32,000 bases of DNA from Nostoc punctiforme PCC 73102 (lineage in GTDB: Bacteria > Cyanobacteriota > Cyanobacteriia > Cyanobacteriales > Nostocaceae): the NCBI RefSeq assembly GCF_000020025.1, contig NC_010628.1:6750001-6782000 (forward strand), read 5' to 3'. This document shows, piece after piece, positions 2,916 to 18,875 of the stretch (the stretch's first letter is position 1; each line of letters starts with the position of its first letter). Made by a program: the position numbers and the translations under genes. The notes under the pieces were generated by a model. That model saw nothing but the letters and a program-made list of their open reading frames with translations. It had not been told where the DNA came from and did not search any database.

Positions 2916-3196
2916 GTAGCAAATTAACTCAGAAAAAAATTTGTTAATTAGCTCAAAATCTCTGTTTATGAGGTTAGGCTGTAGCCAATGTTGAGTAACT
3001 TGCTTGCACAGTTGGTTGTACCCGTAATTAAAAAAGCACTTGGACATTGACAAGTATTAAATAGTACCAAGCATCTAAATCAATATTTTTGTTTTTATTA
3101 CACTTAGAATTAAATAATATTGTAAGAATTTCGGACAATAAATTAAGTATACTTGGCAACTATACAATTTAGAAAATTTGTGTTTGAGACAATTTG

Positions 3197-6100
3197 ATGC
3201 TGGAATTCTGGAAAAGCCTTTTTGCTTACAAACAGTTTATTCCCCACGGTCATTGCTATCTTTGGAAACCAGAATTAGTGGGGTTGCATATTGTATCCGA
3301 CAGTTTAATTGCGCTTGCTTATTATTCCATTCCGATCGCGCTAGTTTATTTTGTCCGCAAACGCCAAGACTTTCCTTTCAACTGGATATTTCTGCTATTT
3401 GCAACATTCATTATTACTTGTGGTACTACCCACCTGATGGACATTTGGACGCTATGGTATCCAACTTATTGGTTGAGTGGGTGCATTAAAGCTATTACAG
3501 CCATAATTTCCCTGTACACAGCTTCTGAACTTATACCTTTAATACCAAAAGCACTTGCTCTCCCAAGTCATGCACAACTGGAGATAGCCAATCAAGAACT
3601 AGAGCGGGAAATCAGCATACGCAAACAGGCAGAACTTGCACTACAAGAGCGTGAAGCTATGTTGCGGCGAATTAGCGATAATCTGCCCAATGGGGCAATT
3701 TATAAGGTAATCCGCGAATTGGATGGTAGCGATCGCTTTGACTATATAAGCGCGGGGATTGAAAGACTGATGGAAGTCAGAGTAGAAGACGTACTGAAAG
3801 ATTCAAGTTTGCTCTATCGCCAGTTTATCCCAGAAGATGTACCACTCCTCCAGGCAGCAGTCGATGAATCTCGGCGGAATTTCTCGGTGTTTGATATACA
3901 ACTGCGAATTCAAACGCCCAGCGCTCGCCTGAAATGGCTCCATTTTCGTTCCACGCCACGCCAGTTGCAGGATGGTCGTGTAGTTTGGGATGGGCTGGTG
4001 GTGGATGTCACCGACCTCAAACGTGTTGAAGAAACACTACGCAAGAGTGAAGCCTTATTAGAAGAATCTCAGCAAGTTGCTCGTCTTGGTAATTGGGAGT
4101 TTGAACTTGCCACTGGCAAAATTACTTGGTCAAAGCAGCTGTTCGACCTTTTTAATCGAGATCCCGAACTTCTTGAGCCGAACTACCAAGAAAATCTGCA
4201 ACTGTACTGCCCAGAAGATGCAGGAAAATTAGCCCAAGCTACCGAGCGGGCAATGTCAACTGGCGAATCTTACCAACTCATTCTGCGCGCATCTCCAATT
4301 TACGGGTCTACTATTTATATTGAGGGGATTGGACATGCAGAATTCAACGCGGATGGAAAAGTAATTCGCCTCTATGGAACTGCCCAAGATGTTACAGAAC
4401 GGCAAGCCGCACTCAACAAACGCAAACAAGCCGAGGAAGAACTCCGACGCAGTGAAACGCTGCTAGCTACTGCTCAAAAGATTGCCCATCTGGGCAGTTG
4501 GGAATGGCACTTAGGGTCTGAGAAACAAATTTGGTCAGCCGAAACCTTCCGCATTTTCGGTCTAAATCCTGCTGAATCAGTACCGACGCAGGCTACATTT
4601 CTCCAGATGCTTTACCCAGAAGACCGACCAGTGTTGCAGAGGCATCTACTACAGGCGATCGCTAATGGCAACCCTTTCAATCTTGAATATCGCATTGTCC
4701 AGCCTGATGGCTCATTGCGCTACCTGGAGTCGAGAGCAGAGGTAGCTTATGATACTCAAGGTAAGACTGTTAGACTGTATGGAGCTATTCTAGATATTAC
4801 AGAACGCAAACAAGCAGAAATTGCTCTCAAACAAAGCGAGATTCGCTACCGTGCCATTGTCGAAGATCAGACTGAATTCATTGCCCGATATTTACCAGAC
4901 GGCACAATCACCTTTGTTAACCAAGCTTTTACACGTTATTTTGGGCGATCGCCAGAGCAACTGATTGACAGCTGCTATCAACCGATTATCTTTGAGGCCG
5001 ATCGAGAGCGAGTTGCTCAATTAATAGCTGCAATGAATGCTGATAATCCTGTTGCCATCATTGAGAATCGCGTGATTCTGGAAGATAGTGTGCGTTGGAC
5101 TCAGTGGCATAATCGGATGCTGTTTGACGAGCAAGGATGCTTTATAGAATTTCAAACGGTGGGACGGGATATCACAGCCCTCAAGCAAATTGAAGAAACG
5201 CTTTTTCAAGAAAAAGAATTAGCTCAGGTGACGTTGCAATCGATCAGAGATGCAGTTATTACTACAGATGCCTTTGGTAGGATTCAATACTTGAATCCGG
5301 TTGCAGAATCTCTGATCGGATGTAGTGAAGCATCCGCAAAAGGGGTGCTGTTAGAAGAAGTCTTTAGAATTGTGCATGAAACGACACGGGAGAAGGTTAA
5401 GAACCCAATTGAGCAAGCGTTACAGGAAAATCGAATTGTGAGTTTAGCAAACCATACCGTCTTAATTACCGGGAGGGATCAAGAGATTGCGATTCAAGAT
5501 TCAGCTGCGCCCATTCGTAATCGTGAAGGACAGGTTATTGGCGCGGTTATGGTGTTTCATGACGTGACTCAGAACCGCTTGCTTTCACGTCAGCTATCCT
5601 GGCAGGCAACCCATGATGCCTTAACCGGATTGGTGAATCGCCAGGAATTTGAGCGGCGCGTTGAACAAGCACTGCACGTTGCCAAGTTAGACTACCAGGT
5701 TTATACGTTGTGCTATTTGGATCTCGATCACTTCAAAATCGTAAATGATACCTGTGGTCATGTGGCTGGAGACGAATTACTGCGTCAAATTACTGTCCTC
5801 TTACAGGAGAAGGTTCGGAAAACTGATACATTGGCACGGTTCGGGGGCGATGAATTTGGCCTATTACTCACTCAATGTACGCTGGAGGAAGCTTTACGAG
5901 TTGCCAATAATCTGCTTTCCTGTGTTCAAGAGTTCCGATTTGTTTGGCAAGAGCAGGTATTCTCAATTGGAGTAAGTATCGGCTTGGTCGTTATCGACAC
6001 GAATAGCGAGAGCCTTGCAGAGATTATCAGCACGGCTGACGCAGCTTGCTATACCGCCAAGAACCGGGGACGGAATCGCGTGTACGTTGCTCAGACTGAC

Positions 6101-6871
6101 GACCAGGAGCGGCTGCAACAGCGCGGTCAGATGCAGTGGGTCGGCCGCATTTCTCAGGCTTTGGAAAGTGATTGGTTTTGTCTTTATGTTCAAAGGATTG
6201 CCGCTATTATCCCGACAGATCAAAACGGCGACCATTATGAAGTCCTTCTGCGGCTGCGGGATGAGCAGGGAAAATTAGTGCTGCCGATGGCGTTTATTCC
6301 AGCAGCAGAACGCTACAACTTGATGCACCTGATCGATCGGTGGGTGATTCGGACTCTGTTCAAGAATTGGTCAAGGGTTGTTGACAATAAACAAAGCATC
6401 TATGCAATTAACCTTTCTGGCTCTAGCATCAATGACGATCGATTCATTGACTTTCTGCATGAGCAGTTTACCCTACACCCCATCTCACCCCAGCATATTT
6501 GTTTTGAGATTACCGAGACTGTAGCGATCGCCAATCTGCTCAAAGCCAGGCAGTTCATTCAAAAGCTTCAACGGATGGGCTGTCGCTTCGCATTAGACGA
6601 TTTTGGGGCAGGGATGTCGTCCTTTGCCTATCTAAAGTCTCTGCCTATAGATTACCTCAAAATTGACGGGAGTTTTATTCGTAACATTGTCGAAAATCCT
6701 GTGGATAATGCGATCGTGACAGCAATCACGCGTATTAGCAGTGTCATGGGTATTCAGACGATTGCTGAGTTTGTGGAGAATGACGCTATTTTAGAGCGAA
6801 TTACGGCACTAGGAATTGATTACGCACAGGGATATGGCATTGCAGTACCTCACCCATTGGGGAAAATATAG
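3197..6871 (+). CDS. Membrane sensor: ethylene-binding-type domain, 5 PAS domains, GGDEF diguanylate cyclase, EAL phosphodiesterase
   Basis: The ORF opens at TTG 3194, and ATG 3197 is the likely start. Residues ~20-125 align with the plant ETR1 ethylene-binding domain (VSDSLIALAYYSIPIALVYF...FIITCGTTHLMDIW), with the Cu-ligand Cys (3419-3421) and His (3431-3433) conserved. Repeated PAS/PAC modules follow. GGDEF is intact (5843-5857), with RxxD (RKTD, 5816-5827) at I-site spacing. EAL domain motifs are EVLLR, DDFGAGMSS and KIDGSF. Confidence 0.9.
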   Translation: MLEFWKSLFAYKQFIPHGHCYLWKPELVGLHIVSDSLIALAYYSIPIALVYFVRKRQDFPFNWIFLLFATFIITCGTTHLMDIWTLWYPTYWLSGCIKAITAIISLYTASELIPLIPKALALPSHAQLEIANQELEREISIRKQAELALQEREAMLRRISDNLPNGAIYKVIRELDGSDRFDYISAGIERLMEVRVEDVLKDSSLLYRQFIPEDVPLLQAAVDESRRNFSVFDIQLRIQTPSARLKWLHFRSTPRQLQDGRVVWDGLVVDVTDLKRVEETLRKSEALLEESQQVARLGNWEFELATGKITWSKQLFDLFNRDPELLEPNYQENLQLYCPEDAGKLAQATERAMSTGESYQLILRASPIYGSTIYIEGIGHAEFNADGKVIRLYGTAQDVTERQAALNKRKQAEEELRRSETLLATAQKIAHLGSWEWHLGSEKQIWSAETFRIFGLNPAESVPTQATFLQMLYPEDRPVLQRHLLQAIANGNPFNLEYRIVQPDGSLRYLESRAEVAYDTQGKTVRLYGAILDITERKQAEIALKQSEIRYRAIVEDQTEFIARYLPDGTITFVNQAFTRYFGRSPEQLIDSCYQPIIFEADRERVAQLIAAMNADNPVAIIENRVILEDSVRWTQWHNRMLFDEQGCFIEFQTVGRDITALKQIEETLFQEKELAQVTLQSIRDAVITTDAFGRIQYLNPVAESLIGCSEASAKGVLLEEVFRIVHETTREKVKNPIEQALQENRIVSLANHTVLITGRDQEIAIQDSAAPIRNREGQVIGAVMVFHDVTQNRLLSRQLSWQATHDALTGLVNRQEFERRVEQALHVAKLDYQVYTLCYLDLDHFKIVNDTCGHVAGDELLRQITVLLQEKVRKTDTLARFGGDEFGLLLTQCTLEEALRVANNLLSCVQEFRFVWQEQVFSIGVSIGLVVIDTNSESLAEIISTADAACYTAKNRGRNRVYVAQTDDQERLQQRGQMQWVGRISQALESDWFCLYVQRIAAIIPTDQNGDHYEVLLRLRDEQGKLVLPMAFIPAAERYNLMHLIDRWVIRTLFKNWSRVVDNKQSIYAINLSGSSINDDRFIDFLHEQFTLHPISPQHICFEITETVAIANLLKARQFIQKLQRMGCRFALDDFGAGMSSFAYLKSLPIDYLKIDGSFIRNIVENPVDNAIVTAITRISSVMGIQTIAEFVENDAILERITALGIDYAQGYGIAVPHPLGKI

Positions 6872-6903
6872 CCTGTTCCCGTAGCTGCTTCTCTTCCTTA
6901 GAT

Positions 6904-7027
6904 TAAGTAAGTTGGTAGAAATAAACCAAATTATGTTATGAAACATAAATAGTTTTAAAGTTCTTACTAATGACCACTGACAAAGGACAGCCTTTGCCAG
7001 TTAGCTTTAATTGCGCCAACCTACTTA
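6904..7027 (+). repeat. Copy C of the MITE-like inverted-repeat element (~124 bp)
   Basis: Left end taagtaagttggta (6904-6917). Right end ccaacctactta (7016-7027) is its imperfect reverse complement (about 11/14). The right-end context attgcgccaacctacttagctatag matches attgtgccagcctacttaagtcctatag at 11593-11620. Confidence 0.65.
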
Positions 7028-7110
7028 GCTATAGTTTTAAAACACGCCCTAGTTAAAGTCACTTGTAAGTCAAGCCTCGAAATTACAGCATTTTGTCATT
7101 GCTTGAAAAA

Positions 7111-8292
7111 TCAAACAGTTGGTTCCTGGTATTTGACTCCTCGTTTTTGATGACGGTCATTAGCAACGATAGGATAAACAATGCTGCGTAACCGATTGAT
7201 TGCACCGACAGGACGATGCACTGCTAGACCATTCCCAGGAGAAAAACTGAGATTTTCTCCAAAGTCATTTGCTTGGGGATAATTAACCTTTTGATGCTTA
7301 ATTGTTAGGCGACCAACTGTAAAGAAGGGTGATTCCTCTTCATTCCAAACAATGGTGGTATCATCAATAGACATTTCTGGGCTGGTTTGAAATTGGATTT
7401 GAAAATCCCAATAGTACTCAGCATCAGGCTTTGCTAAAGCTTGAATGATATCCTCTCGGTAGTAGTTGTCCTCTGAACCTGATGCTTTGGCAAGCTTAAG
7501 CTCACTTTCTGATCTCGACTCAAGAGGAAATTGTTGATGAGGTGGTTGACTGGAAACCGGAGTAAATCCATATTTAATCACAGCCGGATATTCCACAGGA
7601 ACTCGACCTGGTTGGGATGGGTCAAAACCAGATTTGAGTCCCACAGAAAATGCTGAAGCACTCCAATAACGTTCTTTAAGTAAACTCTTGGGAAAACGTT
7701 TGAAACTAGTTTGTAAAAGAGTGGATTCGTAGGGATGCAACTTTAGCCAAAAAAGTACCAACAGCTTAAAAAGCGGAAACAGCCCTGCTCGATAAACCGT
7801 CAAAAAGAAGCTGTGGAAGTCTTTGATGGTTCTAACAAAAAAGAATTCGGTATTGTGGGTAATAATATCTTGAGTTTTTAACTCGTGACTTTGCGATAGT
7901 CGTTCTCCTTCTACGCCGATCGCTTTTACGGCCATGGAGCGCGTATCTCCTTCATAGTCATTCTTGACTGAAAACGCGCCATTGGCAAATCGTAACCAAA
8001 CTGGATATTGTTTTGGTGTGGCAAATAAACCTTGTTTGAGGGAAATGGCAGAAAGTTCCGCTTCAGATAATGAGGTGCGTTTGCTCAATTCTTGCTTAAT
8101 TGCTGCTTCATCAAAGTCAAAGATTTCTAGAGTTCCTTGAACAGCGGCGTGGGTTTTAGAATGGGTATCTCTCTTTGCAGTTTTTTTCTTCTTACCTCCG
8201 TAAAGGTTTTCCATATTCTTTTTGACTAACTCACTCATGAGATCGCAATATTTGAGTTCGTCTTTTTCGGGATATTCGGTAAAAAGCTTCAT
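7111..8292 (-). CDS. Catalase-related haem protein (allene-oxide-synthase / fatty-acid hydroperoxide lyase type)
   Basis: KRDTHSKTHAAVQGTLEIF aligns with the catalase distal-His region (RVVHAKGAGAFGYFEV), but with Thr-His instead of Val-His. The C-terminal region RLRSIVYPIVANDRH resembles the proximal Tyr region. The ORF track starts at GTG 8349; ATG 8292 (MKLFTEYPEKDE...) is preferred. It lies directly downstream of the peroxidase-family gene on the same strand. Confidence 0.8.
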   Translation of the reverse strand: MKLFTEYPEKDELKYCDLMSELVKKNMENLYGGKKKKTAKRDTHSKTHAAVQGTLEIFDFDEAAIKQELSKRTSLSEAELSAISLKQGLFATPKQYPVWLRFANGAFSVKNDYEGDTRSMAVKAIGVEGERLSQSHELKTQDIITHNTEFFFVRTIKDFHSFFLTVYRAGLFPLFKLLVLFWLKLHPYESTLLQTSFKRFPKSLLKERYWSASAFSVGLKSGFDPSQPGRVPVEYPAVIKYGFTPVSSQPPHQQFPLESRSESELKLAKASGSEDNYYREDIIQALAKPDAEYYWDFQIQFQTSPEMSIDDTTIVWNEEESPFFTVGRLTIKHQKVNYPQANDFGENLSFSPGNGLAVHRPVGAINRLRSIVYPIVANDRHQKRGVKYQEPTV

Positions 8293-8382
8293 TTTTTTAC
8301 AAGTAGATTTAATAATATGGCGATCGCTTTCGCAAACCAGCGATCGCACTCAAAGCTGATGTGGAATCAATCTTACAATTTC

Positions 8383-10011
8383 TTAAAGGTCAAAAGTAAC
8401 TTTGTACTTCTTGCCTGATGGAGGAACGTTGCGATTCACTAAATCTGATACAGTCTTGGTATTTTGAAGAATTTCCCAACCTACAGGAGAAAAAGTTTCT
8501 TTATTGAAGATATTGGGTGATAGTAAAGGATTGGTTAGCGCCTGAGAAAAGGCATCGATCCCAATTAAGCGTGCTACTAAAGCAGGGATAGTTGAATTTT
8601 CCCGCCCATCCTCGGCGTAAAGCCCCACAAAGAACTCAATCTTATCAACATGACCATATAATTCTTTGAGTTTCTCTTGAGCAAATTCATTACCAGTAAC
8701 TTGCTCAAATCTCGTCACTCTGGGGAAACCGCACAATTCTCGATAATCGTTGTAGCTTGCCAATTGTAGTTGCCTTCCTAATCTGATTGAAGGTAACTCG
8801 GTTAACTCCACCAATATATCAGGGGTGTTAAACAAACCAATTTTTGTACCTGGTTGAGAGCAAGTTTCTTCCATCAATGCCCCTAAACCTTGGTCAATAA
8901 ACATCTTATTGTTCCAAAGAGATGTAACAATATGGGTTGGTTTACCGTTATAGTTAAACGTTTCTGGAATCGCACTATGCCAGCGATAAACAAAGTCAAA
9001 CTCAATTGCCATATAGTTGGGACGATGCCAACTTTCCTTGGTAAAAGCTTCTGGATCGGCAAACAACTTAAAGTGATAAGGAGTGATGTGGTTAATGTAC
9101 TCTTCCATGATGATTTTTAAAATAATCGCCATGAGAATATTTCTCGATGTTTGGAAGAGGCGTTCATCATCCCAATCTGGATAATTGCGTGCTAATTCAT
9201 CACAAAGACGATTATGTTCCCGGAAACATAGAGTATTGAGCATTACATAGCCAATTTGTACGTTTGCTCGTTCTACTCCCATCGCAAACATATATTGTTT
9301 TTTGTCTATGGGCTGTCTTTTTTCATCATTAATGGGTTCATAAAGTCCCTCAAATTCAGGTTTAACCTTATCCTGTGCTGGATCGGCATAATAGAACAAA
9401 GGATATTCTTCTTCTACACCATCTTGGCGTTTGAGTTTCTGAGTCTTTAATTTACCTCCTTGAAAACTTCTTAAAAGATGTGTTTGTTTTCTGGTTAAAC
9501 CATAAACATTACACAAATCAATTTCGTGGTTGGAAGTATTTTTTAGTTTATTGTAGTGATTAAGGCGAAGAAAGCTATCTGTAAACCACTGCACCCAATA
9601 GGGAAACAGCATGGTTGATTTGCCAGAATAAATAGTTTTACCGTCTCTTTTACGGAATAAAATAGCTAGGTCTTCAACTTTGGGTAGATTACCCTCAGCG
9701 TTTAACTTGGGATCGGGTGGTAGATGCCTTCCTGTATAAGTGCGATCGTTGAGCGATTCCCAGGAAGTATAAGTATCAGTTTTCTTAGGAATATTAGTAT
9801 CAGGAATATGCTCATCCAGAGTCATCATACTGTAGGCATTAGGACGAGTCGGAATTTTGTAGATGAGACTATTGAGTAGAGTTTTGTTAACTTTACGTTT
9901 TATAAATTCGTTACTTTGGAGAAGTTGCCAAAGTCCTTTAAAGTTAGTTAAAACTAATGTTTGAATTTTGTTACCTAACCCGTCTTTGGATGTATCTCTT
10001 TTCCCAGCCAT
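8383..10011 (-). CDS. Animal-haem-peroxidase/cyclooxygenase-related fatty acid dioxygenase (linoleate 10S-dioxygenase-like)
   Basis: 542 aa. FREHNRLCDELARNYPDWDDERLFQTSRNI...EEYINHITPY is typical of the PF03098-type fold. VYRWH (Tyr 8986-8988, His 8977-8979) matches the COX catalytic Tyr / proximal His motif LYHWH. Confidence 0.85.
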   Translation of the reverse strand: MAGKRDTSKDGLGNKIQTLVLTNFKGLWQLLQSNEFIKRKVNKTLLNSLIYKIPTRPNAYSMMTLDEHIPDTNIPKKTDTYTSWESLNDRTYTGRHLPPDPKLNAEGNLPKVEDLAILFRKRDGKTIYSGKSTMLFPYWVQWFTDSFLRLNHYNKLKNTSNHEIDLCNVYGLTRKQTHLLRSFQGGKLKTQKLKRQDGVEEEYPLFYYADPAQDKVKPEFEGLYEPINDEKRQPIDKKQYMFAMGVERANVQIGYVMLNTLCFREHNRLCDELARNYPDWDDERLFQTSRNILMAIILKIIMEEYINHITPYHFKLFADPEAFTKESWHRPNYMAIEFDFVYRWHSAIPETFNYNGKPTHIVTSLWNNKMFIDQGLGALMEETCSQPGTKIGLFNTPDILVELTELPSIRLGRQLQLASYNDYRELCGFPRVTRFEQVTGNEFAQEKLKELYGHVDKIEFFVGLYAEDGRENSTIPALVARLIGIDAFSQALTNPLLSPNIFNKETFSPVGWEILQNTKTVSDLVNRNVPPSGKKYKVTFDL

Positions 10012-10089
10012 AATTATTTTTACCTTTTTTCACTTTTGGATTCAATGCACCCGAAATTTCTCTAATCCGATTACCTAAATTCATTCAAC

Positions 10090-11097
10090 TTATTTCAGTT
10101 TGGAAATAATCTTTTGTAGATTTTTGGGTCGATAGTCTTTGCGACTTCTCAAACGGTTGATCGTGCTTTCATGAAGGTCTTCAATGGCATCGCTAACCTC
10201 ACGAAACTTGATTCCTGCCAATTTAAAGAATCCAGCATCGTTCTTAAAGTCGCATTCATAATTGGGGTTAATACCTGTGGGAATCACACTTGTATCGAAG
10301 TCGAGTCCCAATTTCATCTCACCGATGGAATCAATCATCCACTGTAAGGCGGCATCTGATAACCCGCTATGTTCTTTAGTTCCACCACCAACGCAGCCAT
10401 GTGCGCCTGGAAACCACTTTTGAATCACTCGCTGGTTTTCAGCATCCGGATGCTTTGTCATGGGAGTGACATCAAAGACTTCACGAATTTCGTCAATGGC
10501 CACCGCGTGCAAGGCATTCTGAACACATTTGTTTAAAGTAGTGTCATGGAATCTGTAACGCTTATTCAGTTGCTCGTTCAACTTGCTGAAGGCAGGTATC
10601 CCAGGAATACCAAGGGCTCCAACAGTATCAAAACAACCTAGCAAGGTGATAGGGACGCGATCGCCGTAAGCTTGACGGTATTCCACAGCTTCCCGATCTT
10701 TTGGTTTAACACCTCGTTTACGGTAAAGCTCATAAGCTTCATGGGCTTTGGTGACATGGGGACGGTCTAGAAGACCGGAGCAATAGATCATCCCCGCTAA
10801 ACTTCTAACTGTGTAAGCACCACGACTGAAACCGAACAGATAGATTTCGTCACCAGGAACATAGTTTAGGCTCAGAAATCGGTAGCCATCTTCTATATTT
10901 CTATCGATTCCTAGTCCGGTAGCTCCCCCTAAAACCTTTTGACCCTCGGCTCCAACCCCCTCGTCATAAAATACGATTTGTGTAACTCCGTCACTAGCCA
11001 TCGGTTTTACCGATTGAGCTAACTTAACCACATTGCTAGGGTAAGCACTTGTTAATTGTTGCCAGGTTCCATCACAGCAGATAACGAGACGTTTCAT
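10090..11097 (-). CDS. DUF2235 (Tle1-like) alpha/beta hydrolase, putative (phospho)lipase
   Basis: 335 aa. N-terminal LVICCDGTW...SNVVKL, nucleophile-elbow GFSRGA, then CFDTVGALG and HAVAIDEIREVF. These are the characteristic DUF2235 motifs. Confidence 0.85.
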   Translation of the reverse strand: MKRLVICCDGTWQQLTSAYPSNVVKLAQSVKPMASDGVTQIVFYDEGVGAEGQKVLGGATGLGIDRNIEDGYRFLSLNYVPGDEIYLFGFSRGAYTVRSLAGMIYCSGLLDRPHVTKAHEAYELYRKRGVKPKDREAVEYRQAYGDRVPITLLGCFDTVGALGIPGIPAFSKLNEQLNKRYRFHDTTLNKCVQNALHAVAIDEIREVFDVTPMTKHPDAENQRVIQKWFPGAHGCVGGGTKEHSGLSDAALQWMIDSIGEMKLGLDFDTSVIPTGINPNYECDFKNDAGFFKLAGIKFREVSDAIEDLHESTINRLRSRKDYRPKNLQKIISKLK

Positions 11098-11475
11098 ATT
11101 GTTATTTCAAAGTTTTTGATTAATTAGATCAACTTTTTATTAAAATGCGAATTTGGCATAGATTTAGGGCAAACGCATTTAATTTATCAACTATATGTCT
11201 AGTTTTATAAATGCTTTAGCGAAATATCCTCCCACCTTTTTAATGAGAATGCAAGGACAGTTAAGACAGTTAAACAAAAAATTAATTAAATAAATGTTAA
11301 GTAATATCTGCCCAGCAAAATCATCCCAAGCCATAACAGTCTTCTTTGATTTTTGTTCGTGCAGCGTGGCATAACCATATTTATTTGGGTGAGCGCAAGC
11401 GCGATAGGCAAGCAAGAGGCAACAGGAAAAAAGGATATTTTAGTTGGATCTAAGTTTGCAAAAATTTATTAAATA

Positions 11476-11610
11476 TAAGTAAGTGGGCGTAAATAATTGT
11501 TGTTGGCAATAGGGAATAGGCAATAAATAGGAAATAGGCAATAGATATAAGGATTTTAGTCTAGTTAATTTTTATTTACATAGCTTAATCTTATTGTGCC
11601 AGCCTACTTA
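11476..11610 (+). repeat. Copy B of the MITE-like inverted-repeat element (~135 bp)
   Basis: Left end taagtaagtgggcg (11476-11489). Right end gccagcctactta (11598-11610) is its imperfect reverse complement (about 10/14). The left ~50 nt is near-identical to copy A, and the right end is homologous to copy C. Confidence 0.7.
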
Positions 11611-11710
11611 AGTCCTATAGAAATAGTCAATTGAATTTTGGTTTTTAAAATGAAATCATCAAGGTGCATTAAAGTAAAAAATATTGTCTATCCATTAACT
11701 ACGTTTTTCT

Positions 11711-12772
11711 ATGACACTTTCTACAAACCATGTTTATCCCGTTATTTGGCACAATGGCGCGGTGTCACTAATCGATCAAACTCGCTTACCCAACGAATAT
11801 ACATTTGTGGAAATCCACCGCAGTGAAGATATGGCACGGGCGATTAAGACTATGATTGTCCGAGGTGCGCCTGCAATTGGTGTGGCTGCAGCTTATGGAA
11901 TGTATCTTGGCGCAAGGGAAATTGAAACTAGCGATCGCCACGAATTTTTGCAAAACTTAGATAAAGTAGCCCAGTTGCTAGGTTCTACTCGTCCGACGGC
12001 GGTAAATTTATTTTGGGCAATTAGTCGGATGATGAAAGTTGCTAAGGAAACGTTGGGAACTGTTGAAGACATTAAGCAAACCCTTTTCCAAACAGCCCAA
12101 GCAATCAACGTTGAAGATTTGCAAACCTGTCAAGCGATCGGCGACAATGGTTTGACAGTTTTGCCCGCTAGCCCTGAAAAGCTGACACTACTTACTCACT
12201 GCAACGCTGGGGCGCTAGCTACGGCTGGTTATGGCACAGCTTTAGGTGTTGTGCGTTCTGCTTGGAGGGAAGGACGTTTAGAACGTTTATTTGCCGACGA
12301 AACCCGTCCTCGGTTACAAGGTGCAAAACTCACCGCTTGGGAATGTGTGCAAGAAGGTATTCCTGTGACATTAATTACTGATAATATGGCAGCCCATTGC
12401 ATGAAGCAGGGTTTGATTCATGCTGTAGTTGTGGGTGCCGATCGCATTGCTGCTAACGGTGACACTGCCAATAAAATTGGTACATACAGTGTAGCGATCG
12501 CAGCTAAGGCACATAATATCCCTTTCTTTGTGGCTGCACCCCTTTCTACCGTTGATTTTGAATTAGCCGATGGCAGTAAAATTCCCATTGAGGAACGCGA
12601 TCCAACAGAAATATATCAAGTTGGGGATACTATTCTCACACCTGAAGGTGTGGATTTTTACAACCCAGCTTTTGATGTGACTCCGGCTGAGTTGATTACA
12701 GCCATCATTACAGAAAATGGAGCGATCGCACCTGGGGAATTGGTGAAATTACAGTTAAAGCAATTAGTGTAA
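11711..12772 (+). CDS. mtnA: S-methyl-5-thioribose-1-phosphate isomerase (methionine salvage)
   Basis: 353 aa, eIF-2B alpha/beta/delta-like. Motifs: [41 protein letters not shown]. Confidence 0.93.
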
Positions 12773-18095: not shown

Positions 18096-18875
18096 ATGGC
18101 TATTAATCGACGCAATTTCTTGTTTTTACTTACAGCAGGTGCGGGTGCTTTTGCATTAGATGCTTGTGCATCGGCAGAGAAATCTCCAAATGGAAATACT
18201 GCAACTCCTGAAACAACACCAAATACAAGACTAAATAAAACATCAGATAAACCAGGTGCTATCCAACTACCGCCTTTAGCTTACGCTTACGAAGCACTTG
18301 AACCACACATCGATGCTAAAACGATGCAGTTTCACCATGATAAACACCACGCAACTTATGTTAAAAACTTGAATGCAGCGTTAGATAAACACCCAGAACT
18401 TAAAGGCAAAACTATTGAAGAACTGTTGCAGAAACTTGACAGTGTACCACAAGATATTCGCAGAACAGTACGCAATAATGGTGGTGGCCATGTGAACCAC
18501 TCAATGTTCTGGGAAATTATGAAGCCAAAAGGTGGGGGAGAACCAACAGGAAATATAGCTTCCGCAATTAATCAAAGTTTTGGCAGTTTTGCAGCTTTCA
18601 AAAAACAGTTTAATGAAGCTGGTGCTAGTCGTTTTGGTAGTGGTTGGGTTTGGCTAGTGCGTAATAAAGGTGGCAAGTTAGAAGTGACAACTACAGCTAA
18701 CCAAGATAGTCCCTTAAGTACAGGTAAATATCCCATTTTAGGTAATGACGTATGGGAACATGCATACTATCTAAATTACCAGAATCGTCGCGCCGATTAT
18801 TTAGATGCTTGGTGGAACGTGGTTAATTGGGATGAGATTAACAAGCGGTTTGCAGCAGCAAATAAATTTGCCTGA
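18096..18875 (+). CDS. sodA: Mn-superoxide dismutase with an N-terminal targeting/anchor sequence
   Basis: 259 aa. N-terminus [21 protein letters not shown] is Tat-like RR followed by a hydrophobic stretch and Cys. Mn-type signatures [13 protein letters not shown] and DVWEHAYY. Confidence 0.92.

Follow-up and report, generated by a model that had tools for sequence, protein, structure and literature searches.

In Nostoc punctiforme PCC 73102, a DUF2235 gene is a conserved third member beside a known pair of enzymes, a linoleate 10S-dioxygenase (DOX) and a catalase-related 10S-hydroperoxide lyase (CAT). The trio probably constitutes an oxylipin cassette that releases, oxygenates and cleaves a fatty acid, the lipase step being the inferred one. 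Genes 2 and 3 are already known to convert linoleic acid to mushroom-alcohol volatiles, and what is new is gene 1 as a conserved member. Four lines of evidence tie gene 1 to the pathway: synteny, replacement by class-3 lipases, relatives linked to lipoxygenases (LOX) and swapped cluster parts.

The window analysed here is a stretch of 32,000 nt, and an ORF map placed on its minus strand, at 7111-11097, the three genes that an earlier note had described. The features are as follows.

10090..11097, minus strand: gene 1, DUF2235/Tle1-like alpha/beta-hydrolase, 335 aa, stand-alone; ACC83777.1 / WP_012411723
10012..10089, minus strand: spacer between the DUF2235 and dioxygenase genes, 78 nt
8383..10011, minus strand: gene 2, COX-related haem dioxygenase Npun_R5469, 542 aa; ACC83776.1
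8293..8382, minus strand: spacer between the dioxygenase and catalase-related genes, 90 nt, from the ATG at 8292
7111..8292, minus strand: gene 3, catalase-related haem protein Npun_R5468, 393 aa; ACC83775.1
7111-8349, minus strand: gene 3, longer alternative with a GTG start
11098..11710, no strand: intergenic region separating the divergent DUF2235 and mtnA genes, 613 nt, from the ORF map

The sequences of all three proteins are identical to ACC83777.1, ACC83776.1 and ACC83775.1, from an 8,234,322-bp N. punctiforme contig, and the locus tag of gene 1 is presumably Npun_R5470. The earlier note had given the gaps as 78 and 33-90 nt; the first value stands, and the second settles at 90 nt because the ATG form of gene 3 is the deposited protein. 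Numbered from the GTG start, homology to gene 3 in other loci begins at residues 12-21. The trio has features of an operon, namely a shared strand, these two short gaps and a lack of terminator-like sites (0 found in 6800-11800 against 4.0 expected from shuffles, and none within or between the three genes). A single transcript, starting in the 613-nt region that precedes gene 1, probably covers all three; from its position, that region is presumed to be the promoter region of the cassette. Promoter-like matches in 6800-11800 were not above chance. The 613-nt region contains short GGCAATA-type repeats at 11505-11547, detected in a tandem-repeat search, and no Rfam family was found in it.

Gene 2 matches the animal haem peroxidase profile PF03098 (E 6e-51), in agreement with the cyclooxygenase relationship assigned to it earlier, and is the characterised linoleate 10S-dioxygenase Npun_R5469. 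Its catalytic Tyr (Y342), proximal His (H345) and distal His (H266) are invariant in 13 sequences. Npun_R5469 and Npun_R5468 are named Np-diox and Np-cat (PMC6307994), and their activities are summarised in PMC13049297 and put to use in PMC9579011. PMC13049297 gives Tyr342 as the catalytic residue of 10S-DOX and describes assays on free oleic and linoleic acids; the residue numbers it uses (Tyr342, F143tdsF, Ile483, Ala487 and D486) agree with the gene 2 sequence.

Gene 3 is the characterised 10S-hydroperoxide lyase Npun_R5468, its 393-aa ATG form being the one identical to ACC83775.1. The earlier note pointed correctly to the dioxygenase/lyase work of Brash and co-workers, and genes 2 and 3 are the very proteins studied there, a closer match than the note supposed. 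A match of gene 3 to the catalase profile PF00199 covers the C-terminal part only (E 3.5e-8; score 33.4 bits, cut-off 25 bits), and the protein weakly matches catalases and the coral allene oxide synthase 1u5u. Residues R41, D42, T43, H44, R369 and Y373 are invariant in 79/79 aligned catalase-related sequences, comprising the window protein and homologues from the fetched loci. By motif comparison with catalases, we take T43-H44 (within R-D-T-H) to be the distal pair and Tyr373 to be a candidate proximal ligand; catalases carry Val-His at the position of Thr-His. The description of gene 3 as a catalase-fold protein with a Thr-His distal pair is borne out by the profile match and by this conservation.

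Gene 1 matches PF09994 (T6SS_Tle1-like_cat) over profile positions 1-286 of 287, with E 9e-81 and 271.8 bits against a gathering score of 27 bits. The four motifs on which its DUF2235/Tle1-type assignment had been based (CDGTW, GFSRGA, FDTVGALG and HAVAIDEIR) are all in the sequence and are invariant or nearly so in clade alignments, and that assignment is correct. Ser91 (GFSRG), Asp157 (FDTVG) and His233 (PGxHGCVGGG) form a candidate catalytic triad; the clade alignments show no variation at S91 or H233 and very little at D157 (Glu in P0230). The GFSRG, FDTV and PGxH..VGGG motifs align with those of Tle1 (4o5p) and TleB (9j3f), although the overall similarity to these solved proteins is remote (profile E about 0.2, Foldseek TM 0.36-0.47 and 15-18% identity in structural alignments). 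An AF2 model of gene 1 (pLDDT 70.6, pTM 0.78, with the loops around Asp157 and His233 below 50) matches alpha/beta-hydrolases weakly, the top Foldseek matches being thioesterases and esterases such as TesA (6fvj). At 335 aa, gene 1 has no extra domain, as opposed to the 884 aa of 4o5p and 779 aa of 9j3f, and no signal peptide is visible, since the hydrolase core begins at residue 2. Neither Npun_R5470 nor its accessions turned up in the literature searched; the Brash 2014 paper itself could mention the neighbour.

Conservation of the gene order was examined in 80 loci from GTDB species representatives with DOX 69-99% identical to gene 2, out of 267 DOX loci in all. In 63 of the 80, DOX has a co-oriented DUF2235 gene (60 intact and 3 truncated) directly upstream, with a median gap of about 84 nt across the 60. 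Loss of synteny with the pair in related genomes had been named beforehand as a refuting outcome, and the association survives that test. Loci bearing DUF2235 range over Nostocales, Microcoleus, Coleofasciculaceae and Phormidium, while the flanks of the trio vary: mtnA was found exclusively in loci titled Nostoc, and just 2 loci have the GGDEF-EAL gene. The 80 loci represent distinct species but come mostly from Nostoc and Microcoleus and are not independent observations. DOX-CAT occurs without an adjacent lipase in 6 loci (L030, L047, L050, L075, L078 and L080), and the DUF2235 copies are decayed in 3 (L035, L039 and L048). The lipase gene is therefore dispensable for retention of the DOX-CAT pair.

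Five loci lacking DUF2235 have a class-3 lipase next to DOX instead (PF01764, E 1e-27 to 4e-33), directly upstream in L017, L027 and L036 and directly downstream in L043 and L073. Identity between the two types of class-3 lipase is just 36-40%, suggesting that recruitment occurred independently at least twice, and their presence in these loci would represent non-orthologous displacement. A reverse look-up of 7 further members of the DUF2235 clade (74-82% identity) revealed that 6 adjoin a fatty-acid oxygenase. Five of these are upstream of a lipoxygenase (4 directly and 1 about 1.3 kb away) and one is upstream of DOX-CAT; the seventh, P0231 from Nostoc sp. CCCryo 231-06 (76% identity), stands alone. 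No secretion genes were found among the neighbours of the 7. The LOX-linked loci variously contain a P450, a catalase-related protein or a conserved unknown protein of 422 aa, and an Okeania locus (L082) combines DUF2235 with a mini-LOX and a catalase-related protein. In a metagenome scan, every DUF2235 relative at 63-87% identity was followed by DOX-CAT, including cases in which DOX identity fell to 57%, and those at 60% identity or below had no DOX/LOX neighbour, many of their contigs being too short to reveal one. In an NJ tree, a single clade unites the oxygenase-linked DUF2235 proteins, the LOX-linked ones being nested within it. Sequence identities further indicate that cluster parts are swapped in place. 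Among Microcoleus loci whose DOX and CAT are 95-99% identical, identity of the DUF2235 alleles is only 73-76%, and L088 and L052 share 86% identity in DUF2235 and 89% in CAT but only 61% in DOX.

It could be argued that the DUF2235 gene has nothing to do with the pair and that its adjacency is inherited synteny without functional meaning. The close relatedness of many of the 80 loci, which are Nostoc or Microcoleus species, would agree with this, as would the 6 loci that keep the pair without a lipase and the 3 with decayed copies. However, simple inheritance does not readily account for a trio that persists while its flanks turn over, for a slot taken in 5 loci by class-3 lipases of two types, for lipoxygenase clusters accompanied by the same DUF2235 clade or for single-part alleles swapped in place; moreover, no oxygenase neighbour was seen for DUF2235 relatives outside the clade, many of them on short contigs. 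We consider an unrelated neighbour quite improbable. A role for gene 1 within the pathway other than substrate release is somewhat easier to entertain, although still unlikely. Acting after oxygenation, gene 1 might hydrolyse oxidised acyl esters or clear damaged lipid, or it might be an acyl-ACP/acyl-CoA thioesterase that does not work on membrane lipid, and thioesterases and esterases do head its Foldseek list, with weak scores on a par with those of Tle1. Some cyanobacterial lipoxygenases can oxygenate esterified lipid, so that a role after oxygenation is possible for gene 1 in the LOX-linked clusters. Against such roles, cyanobacterial 18:2 arises on glycerolipids and not on ACP, and the displacing enzymes are class-3 lipases, to which the plant DAD1-type lipases that start jasmonate synthesis also belong. 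In addition, 10S-DOX is of the COX type and, according to PMC13049297, was assayed on free acids.

Gene 1 might also be a Tle1-type phospholipase toxin or antibacterial effector that is delivered by some route other than a T6SS and lies beside oxylipin genes by chance. Its membership in PF09994 is in keeping with this idea, the experimentally studied members of that family being, to our knowledge, T6SS effectors. However, the absence of a T6SS context claimed in the earlier note was confirmed, in that no T6SS, VgrG/Hcp or immunity genes were found among the Pfam-scanned ORFs of the window, which have housekeeping or signalling functions and include dxs, an ETR1_N-PAS-GGDEF-EAL sensor, mtnA, icd, GUN4, ABC ATPases, SOD, histidine kinases and gidB-type genes. 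The short single-domain architecture, the lack of a visible signal peptide and the linkage of clade members to oxygenases (6/7) instead of secretion genes also speak against a toxin, and we regard this reading as highly improbable.

Release of a fatty acid from membrane lipid is thus the most likely role of gene 1, as judged from sequence and gene context. COX-type dioxygenases use free fatty acids, and cyanobacterial 18:2 is found only in esterified form because it is made by acyl-lipid desaturases, which act on glycerolipids and not on ACP; a releasing step would therefore be required. In the proposed pathway, the DUF2235 serine hydrolase would first cleave oleate or linoleate (C18) from membrane glycerolipid. 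The 10S-dioxygenase would then convert linoleate to 10S-hydroperoxy-octadecadienoate via a tyrosyl radical at Tyr342. Finally, gene 3, with Thr43-His44 on the distal and Tyr373 on the proximal side, would cleave the 10S-hydroperoxide to 10-oxo-8E-decenoic acid and the C8 alcohols 1-octen-3-ol and 2Z-octen-1-ol. According to the summary in PMC13049297, the second and third steps were demonstrated in vitro for these exact proteins (Brash et al. 2014). We would guess that the lipase is switched on by damage or lysis. More broadly, the cassette would be one case of a modular design that recurs in filamentous cyanobacteria, in which an acyl hydrolase (DUF2235 or class-3 lipase) is combined with a dioxygenase (COX-like or LOX) and a haem protein that transforms the hydroperoxide (catalase-related or P450).

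There is perhaps an even chance that the small stand-alone DUF2235 clade is a dedicated membrane-lipid acyl hydrolase gating oxylipin production in filamentous cyanobacteria. If so, a family whose experimentally known members are all T6SS toxins would have a housekeeping or signalling role, and bacteria would encode complete modular lipase/dioxygenase/haem-enzyme cassettes with interchangeable parts. These would be prokaryotic counterparts of the animal PLA2-COX and plant lipase-LOX-CYP74 cascades, and activation of the lipase, for example on cell damage, would trigger the release of volatiles such as 1-octen-3-ol.

Among known systems, the closest is the Npun_R5469/Npun_R5468 tandem itself (Brash et al. 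2014, J Biol Chem 289:13101), to which genes 2 and 3 are identical; citing papers describe it as a two-gene tandem, to which the window adds a conserved third gene upstream. Tle1 (P. aeruginosa PA3290, 4o5p) and TleB (9j3f) have the PF09994 catalytic domain and three motifs in common with gene 1. Unlike these effectors of 779-884 aa, the 335-aa gene 1 product is only remotely similar, is partnered by fatty-acid oxygenases and has neither T6SS/immunity linkage nor a large multi-domain architecture. Plants employ a class-3 lipase (DAD1/DGL), a lipoxygenase and CYP74 (AOS/HPL), and animals employ cPLA2, COX and a downstream synthase. Both cascades follow the same logic as that proposed for the trio, in which a fatty acid is released and dioxygenated and its hydroperoxide is transformed, and the first enzyme in plants is a class-3 lipase, as in the 5 cyanobacterial loci. 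The trio differs in being one compact bacterial gene block, in its usual lipase being DUF2235 and in its third enzyme being catalase-related instead of a P450. Catalase-related allene oxide synthases occur fused to or paired with lipoxygenases in the coral Plexaura (1u5u/3dy5), Anabaena PCC 7120 and Acaryochloris marina. There, as with gene 3, a Thr-His catalase-fold protein acts on the hydroperoxide of a neighbouring oxygenase; in the trio, however, the oxygenase is COX-like and not a LOX, the reaction is that of a lyase and not of an allene oxide synthase, and the block includes a lipase gene as well.

Three minus-strand genes lie between positions 7111 and 11097, described in the earlier note as a block of a DUF2235 lipase-like hydrolase, a cyclooxygenase-related dioxygenase and a catalase-related protein; the ORF map, Pfam assignments and gaps bear this description out in every particular.

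10090-11097, minus strand: gene 1, 335 aa, PF09994 (T6SS_Tle1-like_cat, formerly DUF2235), matched over the whole profile at E 9e-81
8383-10011, minus strand: gene 2, 542 aa, PF03098 (animal haem peroxidase; E 6e-51)
7111-8349 (GTG start, 412 aa) or 7111-8292 (ATG start, 393 aa), minus strand: gene 3, PF00199 (catalase), with a match limited to the C-terminal part at E 3.5e-8

The intergenic gaps are 78 nt and, with the ATG start of gene 3, 90 nt. None of the three proteins matched an NCBIfam model, and no Rfam family was found across the window. Terminator-like hairpins were absent from 6800-11800 (0 found vs 4.0 expected from shuffles), and promoter predictions were at chance level. Short tandem repeats with units GGCAATA and AATAGGAAATAGGCAATA occur at 11505-11547, within the 613 nt that separate the DUF2235 gene from the divergently oriented mtnA.

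An exact-sequence look-up identified the three proteins as ACC83777.1, ACC83776.1 and ACC83775.1 of Nostoc punctiforme PCC 73102. PMC6307994 gives the name Np-diox to the haem dioxygenase Npun_R5469 and the name Np-cat to Npun_R5468. Thus, genes 2 and 3 (hereafter DOX and CAT) encode not homologues but the same enzymes that were characterised in 2014 by Brash, Niraula, Boeglin and Mashhadi, and the tandem action of the two is already known. According to a 2026 review, 10S-DOX converts oleic and linoleic acid to 10S-hydroperoxides, and a specific, catalase-related hydroperoxide lyase, which has a gene of its own, cuts the product (PMC13049297). The 10S-DOX residue numbers in that review (Tyr342, F143tdsF, Ile483, D486 and Ala487) fit the gene 2 protein (PMC13049297). 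Among solved structures, the gene 3 protein matched just catalases and the coral allene oxide synthase 1u5u, weakly. In CAT, R41-D42-T43-H44 and R369/Y373 are invariant in 79/79 aligned sequences (the window protein and its homologues); this stretch includes the Thr-His pair pointed out in the earlier note, a hallmark of such proteins.

An alignment scan for DOX, with one genome per GTDB species, yielded 267 loci; the best 80 among them (DOX 69-99% identical) were analysed by tblastn with the window proteins.

Arrangement at the best 80 of 267 DOX loci
Intact DUF2235, DOX and catalase-related gene in that order, all co-oriented: 60 (median DUF2235-DOX gap about 84 nt)
Shortened (incomplete) DUF2235 at the same place: 3 (L035, L039, L048)
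Class-3 lipase adjoining DOX: 5
DOX-CAT without a nearby lipase: 6
DUF2235 downstream of DOX: 1 (Lyngbya PCC 8106)
DOX by itself: 1
Locus interrupted by contig ends: 4

The retention of DUF2235 with the pair, which the earlier note had wished to see checked, is thus the prevailing state in this set. The trio was found in loci titled Nostoc, Anabaena, Cylindrospermum, Scytonema, Calothrix, Tolypothrix, Microcoleus and Allocoleopsis, and also in Phormidium. Its flanking genes vary: among the best 80 of 267 loci, mtnA occurs solely in Nostoc-titled ones, and the GGDEF-EAL gene is syntenic in just two (L001 and L026). In the window, this neighbour encodes a 1225-aa sensor (3194-6871, plus strand) and is convergent with the CAT gene; the N-terminal membrane domain of the sensor resembles that of ethylene receptors (PF25487 ETR1_N, E 8e-44), and it also has five PAS domains, GGDEF and EAL. 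Since its synteny is limited to those two loci, a link with the cassette is improbable. Elsewhere in the window, the SOD domains of a Fe/Mn superoxide dismutase (18096-18875, plus strand) are preceded by some 55 extra N-terminal residues, which may be a membrane anchor.

Several loci depart from the usual pattern. In Lyngbya sp. PCC 8106 (L079:10001-12082) the order is reversed, DUF2235 (69% identical) lying directly 3' of DOX in the usual place of CAT, and the contig stops inside DUF2235. A contig labelled 'MAG: Actinomycetota bacterium' (L046, JBLNEP010000003.1) holds a typical cyanobacterial trio, 75-79% identical to the window, and is probably a mis-binned cyanobacterial contig. A Coleofasciculaceae MAG (L050:7515-9521) has no lipase, and a 668-aa lipoxygenase-like gene lies directly 5' of the DOX/CAT pair, placing both oxygenase types in one cluster.

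In the five loci of this set in which a class-3 lipase (PF01764, E 1e-27 to 4e-33) is the DOX neighbour, DUF2235 is missing. The lipase gene is directly upstream of DOX in L017 (Nostoc minutum), L027 and L036, and directly downstream in L043 and L073. In the first three, DOX and CAT are as near to those of the window as in DUF2235-bearing relatives. The class-3 lipases are of two types, with a mutual identity of only 36-40%. Occupation of the DUF2235 slot by another lipase family is the classic mark of a required function.

The nearest DUF2235 relatives that are not beside DOX mostly adjoin another fatty-acid oxygenase. In Nostoc sp. UHCC 0702 (L081:6001-11241), DUF2235, a divergent 575-aa P450, DUF1304 and a 669-aa lipoxygenase (LOX) are all co-oriented, and in a JGI contig DUF2235 is followed by a lipoxygenase. 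In Okeania sp. SIO3I5 (L082:6001-10909), small ORFs fill the roughly 1.3 kb between DUF2235 and a 460-aa mini-lipoxygenase, which is followed by a catalase-related protein of 340 aa (PF00199, E 4e-5, slightly below the cut-off). In Heteroscytonema and Stigonema, DUF2235 and lipoxygenase are followed by a conserved 422-423-aa protein of unknown function. The clade member of Phormidium ambiguum has the DOX-CAT arrangement. The sole exception among seven clade members looked up is P0231 of Nostoc sp. CCCryo 231-06 (L167:6001-7023; 76% identical), which has no oxygenase neighbour and lies next to genes for a ricin-lectin/NAD-binding protein, APH and MFS.

In Heteroscytonema crispum and in Stigonema ocellatum, the conserved protein encoded directly 3' of DUF2235 and lipoxygenase measures 422-442 aa (L083:9314-10585; L084:4218-5546; L166:4437-5705), and Pfam gives it no family. 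BLASTP and Pfam ruled out a catalase-related identity for the 423-aa protein 3' of the L083 lipoxygenase. Its position makes the conserved protein a candidate for a new partner that handles hydroperoxides.

Seeded with the DUF2235 alignment, a metagenome scan recovered relatives from 87% to 37% identity. The four that are at least 63% identical have DOX-CAT downstream in 4/4 cases, even where DOX is only 57% identical. Retention of an oxygenase neighbour by more distant relatives (60% identity or less) was not borne out by the contigs examined, many of them short and the 60% one (L089, 2 kb) almost flankless: neither DOX nor LOX was seen, and the neighbours checked encode S51-like peptidase, alpha/beta-hydrolase, GH25 and M23 proteins. 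Neighbour joining grouped the oxygenase-linked DUF2235 proteins into a single clade, within which the LOX-linked ones are nested. Within the cluster, identities are uneven. The Microcoleus loci L051-L071 carry two DUF2235 allele classes, mutually 73-76% identical, with DOX and CAT at 95-99%; metagenomic L088 and Microcoleus L052 share 86% identity in DUF2235 and 89% in CAT, and only 61% in DOX. Such a mosaic indicates recombinational swapping of single genes in place, with the three-part arrangement kept.

Members of the clade align very tightly, with a mean column identity of 78%. Two residues, S91 (in GFSRG) and H233 (in PGxHGCVGGG), never vary, and D157 in FDTVG is nearly invariant, being Glu in one LOX-linked member. 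These motifs of gene 1 align with the T6SS phospholipases Tle1 (4o5p) and TleB (9j3f) in a PDB profile search, at a profile E of about 0.2 only. The gene 1 protein has 335 aa, against about 780-880 aa for these effectors; its hydrolase core begins at residue 2, and both a signal peptide and additional domains are absent. Among the window ORFs checked there was no gene for T6SS, VgrG/Hcp or immunity; these ORFs encode dxs, the sensor, mtnA, icd, GUN4, SOD, kinases, ABC ATPases and gidB-type proteins. On context and architecture the T6SS-effector reading is rejected, and a toxin is extremely improbable. Gene 1 is a bona fide PF09994 member and in no other respect a T6SS effector. An AlphaFold2 model (24 sequences) of moderate quality (pLDDT 70.6, pTM 0.78) has an alpha/beta-hydrolase strand-helix pattern, and Foldseek returned thioesterases, esterases and Tle1/TleB, every match weak. 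The thioesterase matches would suit a thioesterase role; this, or a post-oxygenation role, is considered unlikely. The pairs lacking a lipase and those with a shortened DUF2235 would suit an accidental neighbour, which is very unlikely. Lipase displacement, same-clade linkage to other oxygenases and the sharp clade boundary together make chance synteny unlikely. On this comparative evidence, an acyl-hydrolase role for gene 1 is far better supported than its rivals.

Cyanobacterial 18:2 is made on glycerolipids, free fatty acids are held low by acyl-ACP synthetase recycling, and a COX-type dioxygenase requires a substrate with a free carboxylate. A dedicated acyl hydrolase would therefore be the logical gate to free substrate, and gene 1 is proposed to fill that place, perhaps activated by membrane damage, Ca2+ or a developmental cue. 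DOX would then dioxygenate linoleate to the 10S-hydroperoxide, as shown in the literature for this exact protein. The lyase would in turn cut the hydroperoxide, a cleavage also shown for the exact protein; in the 2014 work of Brash the products are reportedly 10-oxo-8E-decenoic acid with 1-octen-3-ol and 2Z-octen-1-ol.

The dioxygenase/lyase biochemistry was established with added free fatty acid, and cellular substrate supply and flux control for the pair are unaddressed in the literature searched. That literature does not mention Npun_R5470, ACC83777 or WP_012411723, does not link DUF2235 to cyanobacteria, lipoxygenase or oxylipins, and holds nothing relevant on a lipase with 1-octen-3-ol in Nostoc. 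Within it, three points appear to be new: the conserved first member of oxylipin clusters in cyanobacteria comes from a defined DUF2235 clade, this clade and class-3 lipases can stand in for one another, and lipoxygenase-based clusters are served by it as well. A conserved, evolutionarily interchangeable lipase gene heading the cluster offers a concrete, testable answer on substrate supply, and gives this clade its first, putative, physiological non-toxin role; both matters, including the function of non-T6SS DUF2235 proteins, are now open to direct experiment. The order lipase, oxygenase, haem partner may serve as a search rule for bacterial oxylipin clusters, and the conserved 422-aa protein is flagged as a possible new hydroperoxide-handling enzyme. 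The suggested self-contained, three-gene path would start with membrane lipid and yield 1-octen-3-ol and 10-oxo-decenoic acid; its logic of release, oxygenation and transformation is shared with the DAD1/LOX/CYP74 pathway of plants and the PLA2/COX cascade of animals.
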